64,000 nucleotides of DNA from Squalus acanthias (lineage: Eukaryota): positions 62,808,001-62,872,000 of the forward strand of contig CM059432.1 in NCBI GenBank assembly GCA_030390025.1. Reading direction: 5' to 3'. Every line of letters starts with the position of its first letter. Position 1 is the stretch's first letter. A model generated the notes under the pieces. The model was not told where the DNA came from and did not search any database. It was given only the letters and a program-made list of their open reading frames with translations. This document shows positions 53,660 to 64,000 of the stretch, one piece after another. Position numbers and translations under genes: made by a program.

Positions 53660-56600
53660 CTATTCACCCTTGTGTAATCCCTTAGTGCCTCTCGTTACTG
53701 TGCCTTTGCCTACTCTAGTGTTCCTATGGAACAGTTCCTGCAGATTGGAGGGTGGCAAATGTAACCCCACTATTTAAAAAAGGAGGGAGAGCGAAAACGG
53801 GGAACTACAGACAGGTTAGCCTGACAACAGTAGTAGGGAAAATGCTAGAGTCTATTATAAAGGATGTGATAACAGGACACTTAGAAAATATCAATGGGAT
53901 TAGACAAAGTCAACATGGATTTATGAAAGGGAAATCGTGCTTGACAAACCTACTGGAGTTTTCTGAGGATGTAACTGGTAGAATAGATAAGGGAGAACCA
54001 GTGGATGTGGTGTAGTTGGATTTTCAGAAGGCCTTTGATAAAGTCCCACATAAGAGGTTAGTGTGCAAAATTAAAGCACATGGGATTGGGGGTAATATAC
54101 TGGCATGGATTGAAAATTGGTTAACAGACAGGAAACAGAGAGTAGGAATAAATGGGTCTTTTTCGGGGTGGCAAGCGGTGACTAGTGGGGTACCGCAGGG
54201 ATCAGTGCTTGGGCCTCAGCTATTCACAATATACATCAATGATTTGGATGAGGGAACCAAATGTAATATTTCCAAGTTTGCTGATGACATGAAACTAGGT
54301 GGGATTGTGAGTTGTGAGGAGGATGCAAAGAGGCTTCAAGGCGATTTAGACAAGTTGAGTGAGTGGGCAAATACATGGCAGATGCAGTATAACGTGGATA
54401 AATGTGAAGTTATCCACTTCGGTAGAAAAAACAGAAAGGCAGAGTATTATTTAAATGGTGATAGATTGGGAAATGTCCTTGTACACCAGTCACTGAAAGT
54501 AAACATGCAGGTGCAGCAAGCAGTTAGGAAGGCAAATGGTATGTTGGCCTTCATTGCAAGAGGATTTGAGTACAGGAGCAAGGATGTCTTACCACAGTTG
54601 TACAGGGCCTTGGTGAGACCACACCTGGAGTACTGTGTGCAGTTTTGGTCTCCTTACCTAAGAAAGGATATACTTGCCATAGAGGGAGTGCAGCGAAGGT
54701 TCACCAGACTGTTTCCTGGGATGGCAGGACTGTCGTATGAGGAGAGATTGGGTCGACTAGGCCTGTATTCACTAGAGTTTAGAAGAATGAGAGGGGATCT
54801 CATTGAAATGCATAAAATTCTGACAGGGCTAGACAGACTGGATGCAGAGAGGATGTTTCCCCTGGCTGGGGGGTCTAGAACAAGGGGTCACAGTCTCAGG
54901 ATACGGGGTAGGACATTTAGGACTGAGATGAGGAGAAATTTTTTCACTCAGAGGGTGATGAACCTGTGGAATTCTCTACCACAGAAGGCTGTGGAGGCCA
55001 AGTCACTGAATATATTTAAGAAGGAGATAGATTTCTAGACACAAAAGGCATCAAGGGGTATGGGGAGAGAGTGGGAATATGGTATTGAGATAGAGGATCA
55101 GCCATGATCATATTGAATGGCGGAGCAGGCTCGAAGGGTCGAATGGCCTATTCCTGCTCCTACTTTTCTATGTTTCTATGTTTCTATGAAGTATTGGCCC
55201 AGTGGCTGCAGCAGGGCTGGTGGAAGGCTGCTGAATGTCCATGTGGGAGGCTTCAGATGGCCTTGCAGGATGCCCTCAACCAGCTCTGGGCCTGGAAGGC
55301 CCAGCTGTAGACTGCACCACCTCAGCATGGGTGGCAGCAGTCTGGGATGGCTGGATGACAGGCAGCGACAAGGGCAATGGCGGAGTGGCAGTGGTGGGAG
55401 CAGGAATGTTGTCATCCTGAGAGAGGACAGCAGGTTCCTGCTCCACTGACCAACTGCCACTCCCCCGAGGCAGCACCTCAGCATCCCTAGTAATCTGTTG
55501 CAGCACAGATTGCTGGCCTGCTGCGACACCGTGAAAGCCCCTGTCAACGGTGGTGGACCCACCCATGATGGCAGCAGTCAGAGCTTGTGTTTCATCAAGC
55601 TGAGACTGCATGAGAGCCTCTGAGATTGGATGCCACCAAGCCTAGACTGCATTACAGCACTAAAACGTTGCGTTGCTTCTGCCTGTGCTGCAATGGAAGC
55701 TGCCAGATCGCCCATCACACGTGGCATCAGGTCTGGGTTGTCACGGTCTATCTGGGAGTCCACTATCCTTTCCAGACTGGAAATGATGGGCTCCATGATG
55801 TGCACAGAGTCTTGTGCAATGTTGGAGGCGGACTCCTCCATGCTCCTTATCATTGCCGACAGGCTCTCAGGCACCTTGCCATTGCACCTATCATCTCCGT
55901 GTGCATGCCCATCGCCCTTCTTCAAAGGCCTCCCCATCAAGGTCTTCATCTGAGTCCTGTGCAGCAGAACTCGCACGTGAAGTCGCCCTCCAGGGAGCTG
56001 GCCCCTGTGCTACCCTTTCCCCCTGGCGTTGTTGCAGCCCGCTCGTTCCCTGGTGCCTCACCCTGTGCAGATCCCACTACTACACTAGCCTCTAAAGAAC
56101 GCGTAGTGCCAATATCTGAGCTGGTGCCTGCGGGTGAGACATGCAGTGACGCGATGTGTTCTTCCTCCTCCTCTTCTCCCGCCTTGCTCTCAATGGTGCC
56201 CTCAGGGACAGGCTGCTCGGGTGCTTGCTCATTATCTGAAGGTATAAAGGCACAAGAGTTGGGTTAAGTTGAGGGGGGTGGTGGCAGAAGGGAGAAATGC
56301 AGGCATACAGCATGATTAGCTGGAAAGTATGAAAGGCTTGTGGGATGAGGGGGAAGTGGGATGTGAGAAGAAGGAGTAGGGATGAACATACCGACGTTGT
56401 CATCAAGGGGGTCAACGTCGCCGGTGGCCACGGTGCCCACCACCTGGCACCCGATAATCACCAGCACTCTATTTTCCAGCACAGACAGTGGTTGGGTGTC
56501 GGCTTGTCCCCCGTCTGTGTGCTCCTGCTCCCTCCTGTTGTGAGCCACCTTGGCCTGCAAGAGAAAGGAAAGTGTCTGAGTGAGTGTGGAGCAATGTGTT

Positions 56601-57024: not shown

Positions 57025-57504
57025 TATAACACCTGCTTGAGTCGTCCGGCTCCTTGGGCTTGGCCTGCTCCTCCTTGCTGACACAGGTTCACAGCCAGCA
57101 ATGCTGAGAATGAGGTTCTACAGCATCAATGAACCTCCCCTTTAAGAACTGGAAAGAGCCTGTGGCAATGATGTTTGCGATTAGACTGCACCTGATATTG
57201 GTTAGCGCTTTGAGTATAGTGCCACTGAGCTAGGCCATTAGCGCTTGATTTACCTCTCCAATCATTTCTTTCAGCGATGATACTTAATTTTTCGTGCAGC
57301 GTGAATCAATAGCGCCTGGTGCTAAATCTCAAACTTTTCTGAAGTTACCACACATTCCTGGGCTATAATGAATTTCTCCCCCTTTGTGTTTACTATCTCA
57401 ATGGTTCTTGTTAAACTTGAGTAAATAATTTTGTCTTTGTTCTCTCTAAATTAGGGAAGTGGGGTAAACCAAGAAGTTTAGTTAGTAGTCTAATAAATAG
57501 AGGC

Positions 57505-58596
57505 ATGGCAGTGCACTTCAGTCCCATCAAATGCACATCCTGTGCCATGTGGGAAGTCCAGGATGCTTCTCGTGCCCTGGACAACCACATGTGCAGGAAG
57601 TGTCGTCAGCTGGAGGAGCTCGAACTTTGGGTTTTGGAGCTTGAGCAGTGGCTGGCATCACTGCAGTGTATCCGCAAGGCTGAGAGCTCTGTGGATAGCA
57701 CGTTTTAGGAGGTGGTCACCCCACAACTTAAGAGTTTGCAGGCAGAGGGGGAATGGGTGATCGCCAGACAGACAAGGAGGACCAGGCAGGTAGTGCAGGA
57801 GTTCCCTGAGTGCATTTCGCTCTCTAACCAGTATTCGGTGAGGGTGATGGTTCCTCAGGGGAGTATAGGCAGAACCAAGGCCATGGCACCATGGTGGCTT
57901 AGCTGTACGGAGGGAAGGAGGAAGGTCAGAAAAGCAATAGTGATAGGGGATTCAATAGTTAGGGGAACAGACAGGCGTTTCTGCGGCCGCAGACGTGACT
58001 CTAGAATGGTATGTTGCCTCCCTGGTGCCAGGATCAAGGATGTCACTGAGTGGCTGCAGGACATTTTGAGGGGGGGTGGGGTGGGGGGTTGCTAGTACTG
58101 TTGAGGAGGCTTTAAACTAGCTTGGCAGGGGGATGAAAACATGAGCATAGATTTAGAAGGGAGAGAAGCAAAGTTGGAAATGGAAGGCAGAAAATTAGTA
58201 AGTGATTTTGGAAGGCAACGGAAACAAAGGCTAGAAAATAGACAACAAAGGGGGTTGGAAGTGCTTCATGGTATATACTTCAATGCAAGGTGTCTAGTGA
58301 ATAAGGCAGATGAGCTGAGGGCACAGATAGACACGTGGAAGCATGATATCATAGCTATTACTGAAACATGGCTGAAAGAAGGGCAGGAATGGCAGCTCAA
58401 CATTCCTGGTTACAGGATTTTCAGATGAGATAAAGAGGGGGATTAAAAAGGAGGGGAGTTACAATATTGGTTAAAGAAACAATTACAGCTGTGAGGAGGG
58501 ATGATATGTTAGAAGGATCATCAAATGAGGCCATATGGGTTGAACTGAAGAACAAAAAGCGGCAATCACAGTGTACTATAGACCCCCAAATAGTCA
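57505..58596 (+). mobile_element. CR1 LINE 5' part (ORF1 zinc finger/esterase, ORF2 start), decayed
   Basis: CTSCAMW..CRKC, IVIGDSIVRG..CCLPGARIKDV, YFNARCLVNK..IAITETWL. Confidence 0.9.
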
Positions 58597-58995
58597 AAAA
58601 GAAAGAAAGTCTTGCATTTATATAGCGCCTTTCACGCCCACCGGACGTCTCAAAGCGCTTTACAGCCAATGAAGTACTTTTGAACTGGAGTCACTGTTGT
58701 AATATGGGAAACGCAGCAGCCAATGTTGGTTGAGGGAAAAATACTGGCCAGGACACCGGGGATAACTCCCCTACTCTTCTTCGAAATTGTGCCATGGGAT
58801 TTTTTACGTCTACCTGAGAGAGCAGACGGGGCCTCGGTTTAACATCTCATCCAAAAGACGGCACCTCCGACAGTGCAGCACTCCCTCAGCACTGCACTGG
58901 AGTGTCAGCCTAGCTTTATGTGCGCAGGTCCCTGGAGTGGGACTTGAACCCACAACCTTCTGACTCAGTGTGCTACCAACTGAGCCACAGCTGAG
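58597..58995 (-). mobile_element. tRNA-derived DeuSINE (SacSINE1-like), near full length
   Basis: Minus strand has A box TGGCTCAGTTGG and B box GGTTCAAGTCC, a central Deu-like domain and an L2-like tail. Confidence 0.8.
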
Positions 58996-59003
58996 ATAGA
59001 AGA

Positions 59004-60638
59004 TGTAAAGTTTCGCAATTATCGCGATTCAAAATAACATAAGAGAAGCAGATTCGTTTGATCAGTTTTATTAAACGAAATGCTGTCCTGATAATAAATG
59101 ACACAGAAGCCTATAACATGGCCGCCGCGCATCGTGGCAGAAGCTTCCAGAAACACAGTGGGCAGACAAGATGGCGTCGAATATACATTCAGTATAAGAT
59201 TGGATCATACTCGGTAAACACTGATAAAGACAGGATGCAACCTGTTTGCATTTGGAACAATAGCAAAGATATAAGTGCTGGAATCGTTTTCCTATGCACA
59301 GTAAGGATCATTGTACTGGGCAATCGAAGGCCCATCCAGACACATCAATACACAAATACCCCCCCGGCTCTACAATGAGAGAGACATTGGCGGGTGATTA
59401 AGTCGGTATTCGGGGGGCCCCAAAACCAGTCGAGGAGACGATTCATACACATCCTGGCTGGTCCAACAATGAGGAAAACATTAACGGATAGTTGGCCAGT
59501 TTCAGGTGCTACCGAAACCCGTTAAAGAAGATAATCGCCCCATGCTGGGAGTTTTGAGCGCCAAATATTACACAAAGGACAAACATTAAGATTTGAGCGG
59601 GAGATAAGCGGACACATCACTATAACTATAGAGAACAAATGTCCATCGCGCTCTTATTCTCTTATTCGCTTGCCTCTTCATGAACTCGCTTGACTTGTGG
59701 GCTCTTGATTTTCTCTCTGGACTTTATTGACTCTTGACTCTTAGCCGTACTGGTCGGTTATTCGAGTGTTGGGTGGAGCTCAATCGGTACGAGCCGCCCC
59801 GACAAGGGCAAGTAACAGGGTACACCATCCCAAGTGTCGGTAAACGGTGTCTGGACCCGGAGGCCCGAGGAGACGAGACGAGAAGAAGACGAGAAGAAGA
59901 CGAGAAGAAATTCCATGTGCCGCCACGGTCAGTAAACCCCGACCACACCCGAAAATATAAATACAGGACTCTTCTTTGAGTTCTACCGACTACAACCTGT
60001 GTCGAACACAGGAAGACTCTTCTTTGAATTTTATCCGAGTTCCGTCGAGTTCTTCATGACAACAGGGAGTCTGGCCTGCTTTTCGCAGCAGCGAAAGTAA
60101 ACAAGTGGGGTGCAGAGACCCTTCCAAACACGTGACAGTCAGGCGCTGCAGCGAAACGAGCTGAGTGCCTCACTTTAAAATCTCCGAAGTAACACGAGTG
60201 GTGAGCATGTTTTACGATCCTACAAATCTAGATGTAGTGTAGGTAGTGTTAAGGGAGGGTGGTTTTTAATAAGGTTAAGGTATAATGTGTTCCCCTTTCT
60301 ACGATGTGCTGTGTGTTCTCCATTTCCATAGACCAAGCTTTATGAATGTATGTATACTTGTACTCTCTTTGATTTGCGCCTATGACATGTATTTCATGAT
60401 TTTAGACGCCATACAATAAAGATTTCCATTTCGTACTATTCAACCGGGTCTATTTGAGTTTTTCTCTGCATTACTGCTCCCTGCATCTAAGTCCAGTGTT
60501 AGAACCGTAAGGGCGAGTGGGTCGAACCACTCACAGGTGCTTATTGCAAAAAGGCTGGCCGGAGACCAGAGCAAGCAATAGTATAGGCAACGAAGGCCTA
60601 ACCTCGCACCAGCAACGTCTGAGATACGCCCCCTTACA
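59004..60638 (+). repeat. 5' LTR (~1635 bp) of a retrovirus-like element
   Basis: TGTAAAG...CCTTACA termini, AATAAA at 60415, followed by a TGG-initiated PBS. The 3' LTR is outside the window, so the left end is inferred. Confidence 0.75.
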
Positions 60639-60643
60639 GAAAA

Positions 60644-60653
60644 TGGCGACCAC
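60644..60653 (+). promoter_or_regulatory. Primer binding site, possibly tRNA-Arg
   Basis: TGGCGACCAC, 5 nt after the LTR end. tRNA identity is from memory of tRNA-Arg(TCG) 3' ends and is unverified. Confidence 0.6.
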
Positions 60654-60706
60654 ATTGGCAGCAAGAGAGTAATGTTTTAGACCCTGGTTTGAATAGGCGA
60701 AATGTG

Positions 60707-62446
60707 ATGGATGAGAAGGTAGCCGACTATGTGTTTGGGAAAGTTAACTTAACCAAAAGGTGGATATGTGACCTACTGATGGATAGGCGTCCGCTAGACG
60801 CCGCCATCAAATGGACAGGTAGTAAAGATCATAAGAAGTCGGTAGAGAAAGCGGTCTGGCTGATGTGCTACAAGAAGCAAGTCCAACTTTCGGACCAGGT
60901 TATTGCAGCACAGGCAGCTCAGATCAGGGAATTGGAAGTTGAGATGGAGGAAAAGGTCACGGGAGGACAGAAACTCATTGCATCATTGAATGCGTTACAT
61001 CAGGAACGCCAAATAGTAGCCAACCACCATGAGGCAAAGATTGATTACCTAGAATGTCAGGTCACGGAAGCAAAATTAAACGAGGGAAGGATTAGAGAAC
61101 GGTGTATCCGCCTAGCTAACCAGATAAAAGCCCAGGAAGAAAGCTTGAGGGGAGTTAGGGCGGCATACAAGATGGCCCTCGAGGATAGGCATGAGGGAGC
61201 CGACCACAGTGTTTGCCAGAGGGAGATAGAGAACCTAAGGGAGTCCCTGAATAAGGCAAACGGCTTGGTGTGTCTCATCAGCCCGTCAGCGAGCCAGCCA
61301 CAGGTGGGTAGGGAATTCCCAAAATCCCTACCGGAAAAAGCAGAAGTGGTATCTGCCACTATGCCCTCCGCGCCACCCAGCTATTCGGCAACCTGGGTAA
61401 GGGAGAAAGTGGTGGAGGTTCCCGAGGTAGGACAATCCCCGGAGGTAGTGTCGAGAGCGGGACCGATGTGTCCGCTCCGAGGTCACAAGAGAGGCCCGAA
61501 TGGGGACAATGGGGCAGACGGGGATATCCTGAACCAACTTATATTGCCCCACAGCTCACACCAGCTGAGAGCAATGATTAGCCATGTACGGAAGCTGTCC
61601 GAGTCAGAAGACCCTTCCGTACATTTTAGAGAAGTAGAACAGACCGCAGCAATTAATGGCTGCGACGACGAGGAAAAGACCAAAATGTTGCTGTTCTCTT
61701 TAGATAGCTCGATCCTTCAGTGTCTCTCCGACGAGAGCAAGAAGGGAAATAAAACCTATGGGGAGTTACGGGACGAGGTCCTAGAAGTGTTAGGGGCGGA
61801 TGACGAAGGTCCGTTCGTCAGATTGGGTCAGACCGTACAGATGGAGGGAGAATCCCCGCGGGTTTTCGCCGACAGACTGTGGCCAGTATACCAGCGTAGC
61901 TGCCCAGGTGCGCCACAGCGCATCTATCTGGACGGCACCGGGAAAGCTCATTGGCTCAGGTGCATGGTAGCCAACAGCTTGCCAGCCGTCAGAGAGCAGA
62001 CCAGAGCGTGGTTTGATCCCAGTAACCCCGCCACAACGGAGGAGTCTGTCCTGAATCGACTCACCATAGGGTATCGGAACACTAGGAGCACGGGAGCGTG
62101 TCCCCTTAAGGGAAAGGTGCATGAGGCAAAGCCCGCAGCTCCGGCTCAGAAAAAGTGGCATCAGGAGGGAAATCGCGCCCCACAAACCAGTGGTGTTTGT
62201 TACGGGTGCGGGAAGACAGGTCACTGGCATAAAAACTGCAGGAATCCCTGGAAGGACTCCAGGGACAAAGCTCCCGCAGTCCGAACCCAAGCGCCTGTCT
62301 CTGAGAAAGGAGCTGGTGTGCCTATCCATCCCGATGCGATAGAATCAATGTTAGGAGCCATGCGGTCTCTTATGATTTCGCACGGGAAAGTGGCAGTCGT
62401 TACCGGCCCCACAGATGCCACAACCCCGTCCACCGGTACCCAATGA
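60707..62446 (+). CDS. gag: Gag polyprotein (coiled-coil N-terminus, PSAPPSY, capsid-like region, CCHC knuckle)
   Basis: Intact ~580-aa ORF; CYGCGKTGHWHKNC at 62198-62239; lies between the PBS and the protease. Confidence 0.92.
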   Translation: MDEKVADYVFGKVNLTKRWICDLLMDRRPLDAAIKWTGSKDHKKSVEKAVWLMCYKKQVQLSDQVIAAQAAQIRELEVEMEEKVTGGQKLIASLNALHQERQIVANHHEAKIDYLECQVTEAKLNEGRIRERCIRLANQIKAQEESLRGVRAAYKMALEDRHEGADHSVCQREIENLRESLNKANGLVCLISPSASQPQVGREFPKSLPEKAEVVSATMPSAPPSYSATWVREKVVEVPEVGQSPEVVSRAGPMCPLRGHKRGPNGDNGADGDILNQLILPHSSHQLRAMISHVRKLSESEDPSVHFREVEQTAAINGCDDEEKTKMLLFSLDSSILQCLSDESKKGNKTYGELRDEVLEVLGADDEGPFVRLGQTVQMEGESPRVFADRLWPVYQRSCPGAPQRIYLDGTGKAHWLRCMVANSLPAVREQTRAWFDPSNPATTEESVLNRLTIGYRNTRSTGACPLKGKVHEAKPAAPAQKKWHQEGNRAPQTSGVCYGCGKTGHWHKNCRNPWKDSRDKAPAVRTQAPVSEKGAGVPIHPDAIESMLGAMRSLMISHGKVAVVTGPTDATTPSTGTQ

Positions 62447-64000
62447 CTAAAGCCCGCGCAGCCCGTTTACCTGTGTCCGCTCAGCTATGATGCGTGGAAA
62501 AGACCCCTGGTAGAGATGGAGGTAGAGAAGCAGAAGGGTAGTTACTTGTTGGACATGGGAGCTTCATGCACCGTGATTCATACAGATAGCCCCTTTGATT
62601 CACCACTGTCTACCAAGGTCCCATTCACATTAGCGGGGTTCACGGGAAAAGAGCAGGCTGGCGCGTTCTCCATTCCGCTCTCCATTCATTTAGGAGCACT
62701 CCACACTACATGGAAGTGCATACTGATGAAATGGCAAGAGGGGGGTGGCAGAGGTATCCTCGGATCGGATCTCCTAGCGGAACACGGGATCCTCGTGGAC
62801 CTTAGGAATCACTGTCTCTGGGGAGCCAAGGGTGGGAAAGACAAGGTAGTTGTAATCCCAGGGAAGGAAGGAAAAGGGGCCCTGTGTACCATGAAGCCAT
62901 CCGGAGGTTACGACCTCGGGCTTATGGTCGCGGATGTCCCAACGGACATGCAAACGTACGTGTCAGATAATATGCACGCGTTTGCAACCCACAAGCACGA
63001 TTGTGGGAGGGTTACCGGGTTTGAGGTCAGCGTAGACGGGGACCCCATGACCCGGCCCCAAAAGCAGTATAACTTCCCCAAAGAAGCAGAACCCGACATG
63101 GAGACAGCAATGTCCTCATTGGTGCAGCAGGGCGTGTTGAGACCGATAGCCACACACGTGAACTCCCCATTATGGCCGGTAAGGAAGCCGGATAATTCGT
63201 GGAGGGCCACGGTGGACTACAGAGTCCTTAACAGTAACATCCCCGCCTGCGCGCCCACAGTAGCAGCAGTTGCTGACCTAATAGGGAGTATCCCAGCGTC
63301 CGCGACCACGTTCACGGTGCTGGATATCTCGAACGGTTTTTGGTCCATCCCGCTGCGGCGAGAGGACCAGTACAAGTTTGCCTTTACTTTTAAAGGACAA
63401 CAGTACACGTGGAACTGTCTGCCACAGGGTTTCCACAACAGCCCCAGTATTTTCCATCAGTGTATGGCAGGAAGTTTAAAGGAGTTTAGTCAGCCCAATC
63501 AGATAGTGCAGTACGTGGATGATTTGCTCCTGTTCACAGACTCAAGGGAGGAGCATGGACCACTGTTAGCCGCGTTATTGGAGCTGCTAGCGAGAAAGGG
63601 TTTTAAAGTTAACCCTAAGAAAGCACGGATCGGTCAGCAGGAATTAAAATTCCTGGGCCTGACCATTCGCGCTGGGGAAAGAGCCATAGATAAGGCTAGG
63701 AGGGAGTCGGTGCAGGAGTTACCGATTCCCAACACCATAACGGGTGTGAGGTCCTTTCTGGGACTGACCGGTTACTGTAGAGACTTCATCGAGGACTATG
63801 CGGCCACAGCAGCTCCGCTGCTCCGACTCCTCCATAAGGGAGTGGAGTGGTCTTGGGACGAGGGTTGTCAGGCAGCATTCGAGAAGTTAAAAAGGGATCT
63901 GCAGACCGCGCCAGCTTTAGGGGCCATAGATGGGGGGGAGGAGTTTTTCCTGGAGGTAGCTGCCAGCGGAGACAGCTTGAGCGCTGTGCTGCTCCAAGAG
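62447..64000 (+). CDS. pol: Pol (protease, reverse transcriptase, start of RNase H-like tether), partial; in frame with gag
   Basis: Hand translation is open to the window end: LLDMGAS, GILGSDLL, RPQKQY, NSPLWPVRKPD, LDISNGFW, LPQGFHNSP, QYVDD (YVDD 63512-63523), FLGLTGYCR. Confidence 0.95.

Follow-up and report, generated by a model that had tools for sequence, protein, structure and literature searches.

The 3' end of the window (the whole 64,000-nucleotide stretch of Squalus acanthias DNA analysed here) contains what is most probably a defective provirus of a large endogenous retrovirus (ERV) family related to snakehead retrovirus (SnRV), lying in the class III region and belonging to the amphibian/coelacanth/chondrichthyan branch of clade Huo. 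An earlier sequence-only reading had proposed a basal retroviral lineage; the element is indeed a true retrovirus from the deep class III region, but the family is a new variant within a known clade and not a new basal or top-level lineage. The provirus measures 12,387 bp in total and is laid out as 5' LTR, gag, TGA, pol (protease, RT, tether, RNase H and integrase), env and 3' LTR; the window contains only its 5' 5 kb, and the element continues for 7,390 nt beyond position 64000. This copy is defective, having a deletion in the PBS, a frameshift in RNase H and a broken env, and is itself dead. Its features are as follows, with numbering continued past 64000 where required.

59000..59003, + strand: left TSD AAGA, 4 bp; the identical 4 nt follow the 3' LTR
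59004..60638, + strand: 5' LTR, 1,635 nt, TG...CA (self-BLAST)
59956, 60200 and 60415, + strand: 5' LTR signals, namely TATA-like box, donor-like GGTGAG and AATAAA, respectively (motif scan)
60639..60643, + strand: LTR-PBS spacer, 5 nt, whose final A and the TG of the PBS make ATG
60644..60653, + strand: PBS of tRNA-Arg type, with 8 nt deleted in this copy (alignment of copies)
60707..62446, + strand: gag, counted from this copy's first ATG in frame to the TGA stop (ORF; skate homologue 59% identical)
about 60870-61270, + strand: heptad-rich N-terminal region of Gag (judged by eye)
62195-62242, + strand: single CCHC knuckle of Gag (weak Pfam match, E 0.034)
62444..62449, + strand: gag/pol junction TGA-CTA, type II (alphavirus-type) readthrough context (hexanucleotide)
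62447..63853, + strand: 5' part of pol (Pfam and motifs)
about 62495-62788, + strand: protease, active-site triad non-canonical in this copy
63179-63667, + strand: RT core with YVDD (Pfam and motifs)
63854..64000, + strand: first part of the tether, truncated where the window ends; what follows past 64000 is degenerate
about 64525-64651 (continued numbering), + strand: frame change of this copy within the second RNase H
up to 66735 (continued numbering), + strand: integrase
67009-69361 (continued numbering), + strand: env, with a premature stop and a frameshift in this copy
69755-71390 (continued numbering), + strand: 3' LTR, 1,636 nt, adjoined by AAGA (self-BLAST)

The 5' LTR begins with TG at 59004, and its length agreed with the roughly 1.6 kb read earlier; the positions of its signals imply an R region that would be long, about 450 nt. 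The TSD, expected to end in (G)AAGA, proved to be AAGA on both sides, 4 bp long, and not GAAGA. Exact 4-bp TSDs were also found in 10 of the 19 LTR pairs computed (of 21 pairs in the set, two had no 3' LTR, and two others were invalid owing to one duplication and one nested LTR). The two LTRs of this provirus are 98.7% identical by self-BLAST, with 20 substitutions and one gap, and their divergence of 0.0123 gives an age of about 3 Myr if a mammalian rate is applied, or of about 28 Myr with the rate that Han 2015 assumed for sharks. The proposed recent activity thus holds for a fairly recent expansion of the family in relative terms, its absolute age depending on the rate chosen. Extension past 64000 yielded the second RNase H, integrase, env and 3' LTR that the sequence-only reading had suggested looking for there. 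A purine tract lies in the gap of about 390 nt between env and the 3' LTR, and no + strand ORF of at least 120 codons was found in this copy from env to the end of the 3' LTR.

The gag frame is open from 60623 to 62446. Genome-wide, the spacer A was present in 624 of 676 LTR/PBS junction matches and absent in 52, including a recurrent variant seen in seven of the first 100 listed. We found no earlier description of a gag-frame AUG overlapping the PBS in the literature searched, and the family provides a natural experiment on whether a PBS also serves as coding sequence. In other copies the full-length PBS matched the end of a host tRNA-Arg(TCG) gene at 18 of 18 positions, and the 8 nt missing here were present in 6/6 aligned copies. 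Because of this deletion, the short leader described earlier, with gag starting only about 60 nt after the PBS, is partly copy damage, although the first gag-frame ATG of this copy (60707) does lie at about that distance from the PBS start (60644). In a distant family of the same genome, whose Gag is 26% identical, the PBS is of Lys type, no AUG overlaps it, and Gag begins at the counterpart of the second AUG; this family and the 52 junctions devoid of the A make a strict need for the AUG at the PBS less likely.

The combination of a zinc knuckle with an in-frame gag-pol was confirmed, pol following in the same frame after a single TGA; the part of Gag between the heptads and the knuckle is, from its position, presumably capsid-like. 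At least 871 related gag/pol junctions were found in the genome, of which 860 carry TGA-CTA with pol in frame behind the TGA. The UGA-CUA context falls within the type II readthrough class in the classification given in PMC13517186. No downstream stem exceeded shuffled sequences (z -0.19), and the context fits a leaky UGA-CUA stop that would be read through without a downstream structure. No description of UGA-CUA readthrough in retroviruses was found in the literature searched; the family offers a retroviral case of this context, for which the consulted portion of a 2026 review does not list retroviruses. While gag and pol are uninterrupted up to 64000, as had been stated, the pol frame of this copy changes beyond it in the second RNase H, a frame that is open in 24 of the 26 copies examined. 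The Pfam matches run from PF17917/PF17919 (tether) to PF00075 (second RNase H), and the tether appeared by eye to have no catalytic carboxylates.

Phylogenetic placement relied on an RT tree of 320 columns in which lokiretroviruses were represented by a single row, and Odin elements and labelled foamy-like ERVs of fish or sharks by none. The element was placed inside the canonical retroviruses and Loki outside (support 100/97 under both models); Pols of amphibians and of coelacanth joined the element in a nine-row clade (98/93, and 91/94 with the mixture model). This placement, the tether with a second RNase H and the env after pol ruled out a Gypsy/Metaviridae element, and an Odin retrotransposon was rejected on the presence of env, whereas Odin has none. 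SnRV was not the sister row but sat in an open basal fork. In AU tests, grouping with lokiretrovirus, represented by one Loki-motif row, was rejected (p=0.005), and neither grouping with foamy viruses (p=0.062) nor grouping with SnRV (p=0.21) was. RT identity amounted to about 50% within the element's own clade, 41% to SnRV and 30-37% to 16 foamy RTs. All the RT motifs quoted earlier are present, but calling them foamy-like was not borne out by these identities, and since SnRV also carries LDISNGFW and LPQGFHASP, they are not foamy-specific. The integrase was 40% identical to the Loki-motif row versus 35% to SnRV; in the integrase tree, where the position of the element is loose and no CGIN1 row was included, the Loki integrase grouped with three frog and coelacanth members of the element's RT clade (99/95, 96/93).

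The lineage has already been sampled: the RT fragment le_er_ERV4 of little skate (S2 Data of Xu et al. 2018, PMC6001957) is identical at 121 of 138 aa (about 88%, counted by eye) and very probably belongs to it; its 414-nt entry contains no LTR, gag, env or junction. An undescribed family had been considered possible, and the anatomy of the full-length genome does seem to be undescribed; of the two outcomes that would have spoken against that reading, nesting among Gypsy elements was not found and a match to a described family was found in part, over these 138 aa. In the extracted text of S2 Fig of Xu et al. 2018, ca_mi_ERV1, la_ch_ERV4 and an_ja_ERV4, which share the HKHDCG and PQGFHNSP motifs with the element's RT, are labelled around Snakehead retrovirus and "Clade Huo"; Huo membership is thus taken partly from label order, and le_er_ERV4 is absent from the extracted labels. 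Elephant shark ca_mi_ERV1 (CmiERV lineage I; PMC4422223, PMC6001957) is likewise an SnRV-related ERV of a cartilaginous fish, 9.6 kb long, and shares ATHKHDCG, LDISNGFW and PQGFHNSP, but its RT is, by eye, clearly farther from the element than that of le_er_ERV4. SnRV itself (genome of 10,688 nt, PMC12193657; RT printed in PMC7947760) shares with the element a PBS of Arg type, an in-frame stop separating gag and pol, two RNase H domains, a homologous Env and a heptad-rich Gag with a single CCHC, the Gag likeness being confined to the coiled coil (judged by eye) and the knuckle. It differs in its stop (UAG-GGC instead of TGA-CTA), in a PBS 1 nt past the LTR with the gag start about 230 nt later, and in having a 1,134-codon env frame as well as accessory ORFs. 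Because SnRV has both the knuckle and readthrough, the supposed mosaic architecture poses no puzzle. In the class III ERV XtERV-S (PMC8278194), gag and pol are likewise separated by a TGA in frame, but this ERV is ERV-L-like, with a Ser primer, a class I-like TM and a dUTPase-like segment.

Env comprises, in order, a signal peptide, a weakly supported Ig-like head, an RQRR site, a fusion peptide, heptads and a TM. Plain BLASTP gave no similarity to SnRV Env (E 0.09); profile comparison aligned the two over 276 colinear columns (probability 93%, E 2.4e-7). Foldseek searches with a model of moderate quality (pLDDT 69, pTM 0.45) retrieved hPIV3 F (E 3.3e-8), RSV F and foamy Env (2.4e-6), most matches having an rmsd of >20 A, and suggested a paramyxovirus-F-like class I fold; sequence searches gave no convincing match in the PDB and no fusion family in Pfam. 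As single-sequence fold prediction of the N-terminus failed (pLDDT 35), the Ig-like head rests on Pfam matches below threshold (Ig_3 at E 0.032 and, in a homologue, V-set at E 0.045), on a UniRef label and on a C-W-DxGxYxC pattern. Close Env and Gag homologues, where named, come from sharks and skates, and the Env family as a whole is present in sharks and frogs. Wang and Han left undecided whether the F-like Env is ancestral in retroviruses or was acquired only in Loki; the element, as a canonical retrovirus outside the foamy viruses whose predicted F-fold Env is homologous to that of SnRV, favours ancestry. The family provides hundreds of copies for study.

Foamy viruses have a long LTR, a 4-bp TSD and a short leader; their Gag has no zinc knuckle, and accessory genes follow env ahead of the 3' LTR. 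The first three features, the long R and the PQKQY motif would suit an origin as a basal foamy-like ERV of clade Tu, close to the CmiFLERVs of shark, with knuckle and readthrough retained, as would the unrejected AU grouping. An F-like fusion fold is moreover common to the element and foamy viruses/FLERVs (PMC11468914, PMC5512871), and FLERVs exist in shark and frog (PMC5512871). We nevertheless regard this origin as very unlikely, given the lower RT identity to foamy viruses than to SnRV or its own clade and the grouping of the foamy rows elsewhere, with P0015/P0020 (94/93; 87/88 under the mixture model). The primer is Arg, not Lys or Asn, Gag has its CCHC, no accessory ORF was found, and pol lies in frame behind the stop, whereas foamy Pol has its own start in a different frame (PMC8278194). 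Of the foamy hallmarks that could be tested for the proposed "spuma-related" placement, namely pol in a frame of its own, a Gag without knuckle and accessory ORFs, the element has none. That the element is instead the first lokiretrovirus of cartilaginous fish is scarcely credible, even though Loki elements likewise have two RNase H domains, a coiled-coil region and an Env that resembles Mononegavirales F and carries a basic cleavage site (PMC7947760), and the integrase may be of a related type. None of the six chondrichthyan genomes screened in that study bears an asterisk, which seems to denote presence. The Loki RTs displayed in print carry QY(K/R)(I/L)PL and PFG(Y/L), or damaged forms, where the element has QYNFP and PQGF; the AU test contradicts the earlier "lokiretrovirus-like", and because an F-like Env also occurs in SnRV, foamy and walleye viruses, it is not diagnostic of Loki.

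Less improbable, yet still unlikely, is that sharks, skates, frogs and coelacanth carry a separate deep canonical lineage, lumped with SnRV and ERV-L in "clade Huo" but worthy of a rank of its own. The supported nine-row RT clade, with its junction to the SnRV and ERV-L-like rows loose in our tree, the Env family of its own and the grouping of the Loki integrase with frog and coelacanth members would agree with it; Env homology and Arg priming tie the element to SnRV, the five clades of Xu et al. were strongly supported with much wider sampling, and the loose base of our tree may reflect its few columns and thin sampling. A joint reading, tentative and on the whole doubtful, would make this deep lineage one with an ancestral F-type fusogen and a swappable Ig-like head, a Pol reached by structure-free UGA-CUA readthrough, a Gag start inside the PBS in the shark/skate branch and an integrase lineage taken up by lokiretroviruses. 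The host tRNA chosen as primer would then rewrite the first residues of Gag, and retroviruses would have started out with the F-type Env now seen in this lineage and in SnRV, foamy, Loki and walleye viruses.

For the preferred SnRV-related clade Huo provirus, the following life cycle can be proposed. Pol II would transcribe from U3 through the long R-U5, and Gag would be made from unspliced RNA, starting at the PBS-overlapping AUG or the next in-frame AUG. A small share of ribosomes may pass UGA-CUA to yield Gag-Pro-Pol. Host tRNA-Arg(TCG) isodecoders, complementary to the PBS, probably prime reverse transcription, with the C-terminal RNase H active and the first serving as a dead tether, as their motifs suggest; the integrase generates the 4-bp TSDs observed. 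Env, probably translated from a spliced RNA, would be cut at the basic site and mediate membrane fusion through the modelled F-like fold, the variable Ig-like head being the putative receptor-binding part. A related-locus search found no relatives in viral contigs, and an expression search turned up no data set listed as RNA that contained the element; four of eight runs only guessed to be RNA (two organisms) had related pieces in 30/30 bins, which is not evidence of transcription. Reinfection or intracellular transposition may have spread the family to about a thousand copies.

The provirus extends past the window end, and its features, in window coordinates carried on beyond 64000 (continued numbering), are as follows.

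G000:C8:62867004-62879390 (genome searched): provirus, its 5' end carried by the window
59004-60638, + strand: 5' LTR
60623-62446: gag, with pol in the same frame across one TGA
69755-71390, continued numbering, past the window end: 3' LTR, 98.7% identical to the 5' LTR (K2P 0.0123)
both outer ends of the provirus: AAGA

The RT motifs quoted in the sequence-only reading were present in this copy, and Pfam detected a CCHC knuckle (a weak match), protease, RT and tether in the window part and the second RNase H and integrase beyond it. The extension past 64000 proposed in that reading recovered these two domains together with env and the 3' LTR, and its proposed LTR comparison and flank inspection yielded the listed identity and paired AAGA. 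Its description of gag and pol as uninterrupted held for their common frame across the TGA but not for pol as a whole, whose frame changes within the second RNase H. Since this frame was open in 24 of 26 copies inspected, the change represents decay and is not programmed. The window copy is not intact; its env bears one stop and one frameshift, its protease triad is non-canonical, and its PBS is 8 nt short relative to all six aligned copies. Around the insertion site (window 53719-55038 and 57421-58700) lie other repeats and fragments that we take to be LINEs of CR1/L2 type, in ordinary repeat-rich DNA.

The nearest RT relatives, about 50% identical, were frog and coelacanth proteins named 'NYNRIN-like', and further contigs. 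For the RT trees, which were built without Odin or labelled foamy-like ERV rows, reference rows received their labels by comparing motifs with the RTs in the PMC7947760 supplement, giving snakehead retrovirus (SnRV; P0021, genome L108, 10,688 nt), one lokiretrovirus (P0027) and foamy genomes. In a 47-row tree (LG+G4), the query fell inside the canonical retroviruses with the lokiretrovirus outside (support 100/97) and within a 9-row clade (98/93) joined weakly by ERV-L-like rows (82/65), and SnRV and the foamy group arose from an open base. A mixture-model tree of 31 rows, 16 fewer for run time, was consistent with this (query clade 91/94). The AU test rejected the query with the lokiretrovirus (p=0.005) and rejected neither foamy (p=0.062) nor SnRV (p=0.21) as its partner. 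Thus, of the earlier proposal of a retroviral lineage, lokiretrovirus-like or spuma-related, the retroviral part stood, whereas the lokiretrovirus-like part failed against the single such row. We consider it likely, and well supported, that the provirus belongs, among canonical retroviruses, to the SnRV-related class III region.

The integrase trees did not settle the query's position by support. The lokiretrovirus row grouped there with P0006, P0007 and P0008, frog and coelacanth proteins from the RT clade of the query, at 99/95, or 96/93 without two long rows; monophyly of that RT clade without the lokiretrovirus was weakly rejected (p=0.036, for a group named after the tree was seen), and monophyly of all canonical rows was not (p=0.195). 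The Loki/CGIN1-type integrase may have come from these frog and coelacanth members, many of which carry the automatic name NYNRIN-like.

The exact gag/pol junction pattern, which itself fixes CTA, had 871 matches (reversed control, 0), and TGA preceded CTA in 860 of them. In the consulted part of PMC13517186, UGACUA is a type II context with high basal readthrough, the retroviral contexts are UAG-G types, UGAAGA, UGACGA and UGAAGU, and that of SnRV is UAGGGC. XtERV-S shares the TGA. No stem above shuffles was found downstream of the junction.

The PBS lies 5 nt beyond the LTR, in contrast to 1 nt in SnRV, and at the U3 end there are 2 extra nt, as is usual. Full PBSs of other family copies matched host tRNA-Arg ends, one variant matching a tRNA-Arg(TCG) gene at 18/18. 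The spacer's last A and the TG of the PBS formed an ATG in gag register in all 25 genuine rows (26 printed), with a later stop in three and a frameshift before the second ATG in one, and the ATG is present in 624 of 676 LTR/PBS junction matches genome-wide. In the annotation of a skate Gag that is 59% identical, translation starts at the same PBS-encoded ATG, and the resulting extension is about as long. On this sequence pattern, the odds that this ATG serves as the Gag start are about even; against an essential role, a spacer variant without it recurs, a homologue at 46% identity has a different N-terminus, and a distant family uses the counterpart of the second ATG as its start. In a distant ERV family of the same genome, an 18-nt PBS upstream of a gag-like frame (L169) is identical to that of SnRV. 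In another (L167:5349-5390 and L174:1540-1590), the spacer is 6 nt, the gag ATG lies ~13-21 nt past the PBS, and the PBS is presumably of tRNA-Lys type. A long LTR-PBS spacer and a tiny leader may each be characteristic of a lineage.

The natural C-terminal piece of Env, folded with 34 aligned rows (pLDDT 69, pTM 0.45), gave paramyxo- and pneumovirus F as the best PDB matches in Foldseek (E 3.3e-8 onward), as well as foamy Env (E 2.4e-6). BFVD matches also included baculovirus F and, weakly, the walleye epsilonretrovirus Envs Q9WHI8 and A4GTG3 (E ~2e-4); Atlas was consistent, by features, with an F-like Env. The Env profile was colinear with SnRV Env (probability 93%, E 2.4e-7), and BLASTP gave no alignment between the two. 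There is a weak indication of an Ig-like head. SnRV env (L108:6131-9535) aligns with the F-type Env family and starts, by eye, with an Ig-like C-W-YxC pattern. Homologues from sharks and a frog (P0132, P0133, P0139, P0157) have a common F-like core, but their N-terminal heads, Ig-like in some, do not resemble one another; those with long open frames may have been co-opted as genes.

In the consulted part of the Xu et al. 2018 supplement (PMC6001957), le_er_ERV4 is identical to the query RT at 121/138 residues, counted by eye, and ca_mi_ERV1, la_ch_ERV4 and an_ja_ERV4 (names taken from entry order) are look-alikes; in S2 Fig, a figure read as text, the labels of these look-alikes lie near those of SnRV and 'Clade Huo'. 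SnRV-related ERVs in elephant shark appear in the consulted part of Han 2015 (PMC4422223). The suggestion of an undescribed family thus fails for the RT fragment, already sampled, although several unusual features seem undescribed: the searched literature, seen in part and with subscription journals and Repbase/Dfam outside its scope, yielded no description of the family's full anatomy, of a gag AUG inside a retroviral PBS, or of SnRV Env as F-like.

The DNA search (29 of 9,208 candidates scored) returned at least 26 matches, window included, which were 93-100% identical over 4.6 kb. A sister subfamily differed mainly outside the PR-RT part (95-98% identical; LTRs ~73%, Gag ~80%), and more distant families with related env were common (83 matches). 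Close Env and Gag homologues bearing a species name came from sharks and skates, which points to a cartilaginous fish as the probable host. LTR pairs (21 tried, 19 computed, 17 valid), from copies chosen for likeness to the window copy and not for youth, gave K2P of 0.003-0.027 with no identical pair, and 10 of the 19 computed had an exact 4-bp TSD. The window copy would be ~3 Myr old at a mammalian rate (PMC7947760) or ~28 Myr at an assumed shark rate (PMC4422223). Six of 19 other copies fetched (L014, L018, L021, L026, L029, L032) carry an insertion of ~0.9 or 4.1-4.3 kb between pol and env at the same point (element position ~7,790), reflecting either shared ancestry or a hot spot. At G000:C13:72.62-72.65 Mb (L007/L008), two 5' LTRs 11.9 kb apart have the same flank, a local duplication, and locus L110 resembles a tandem provirus with one LTR in common.
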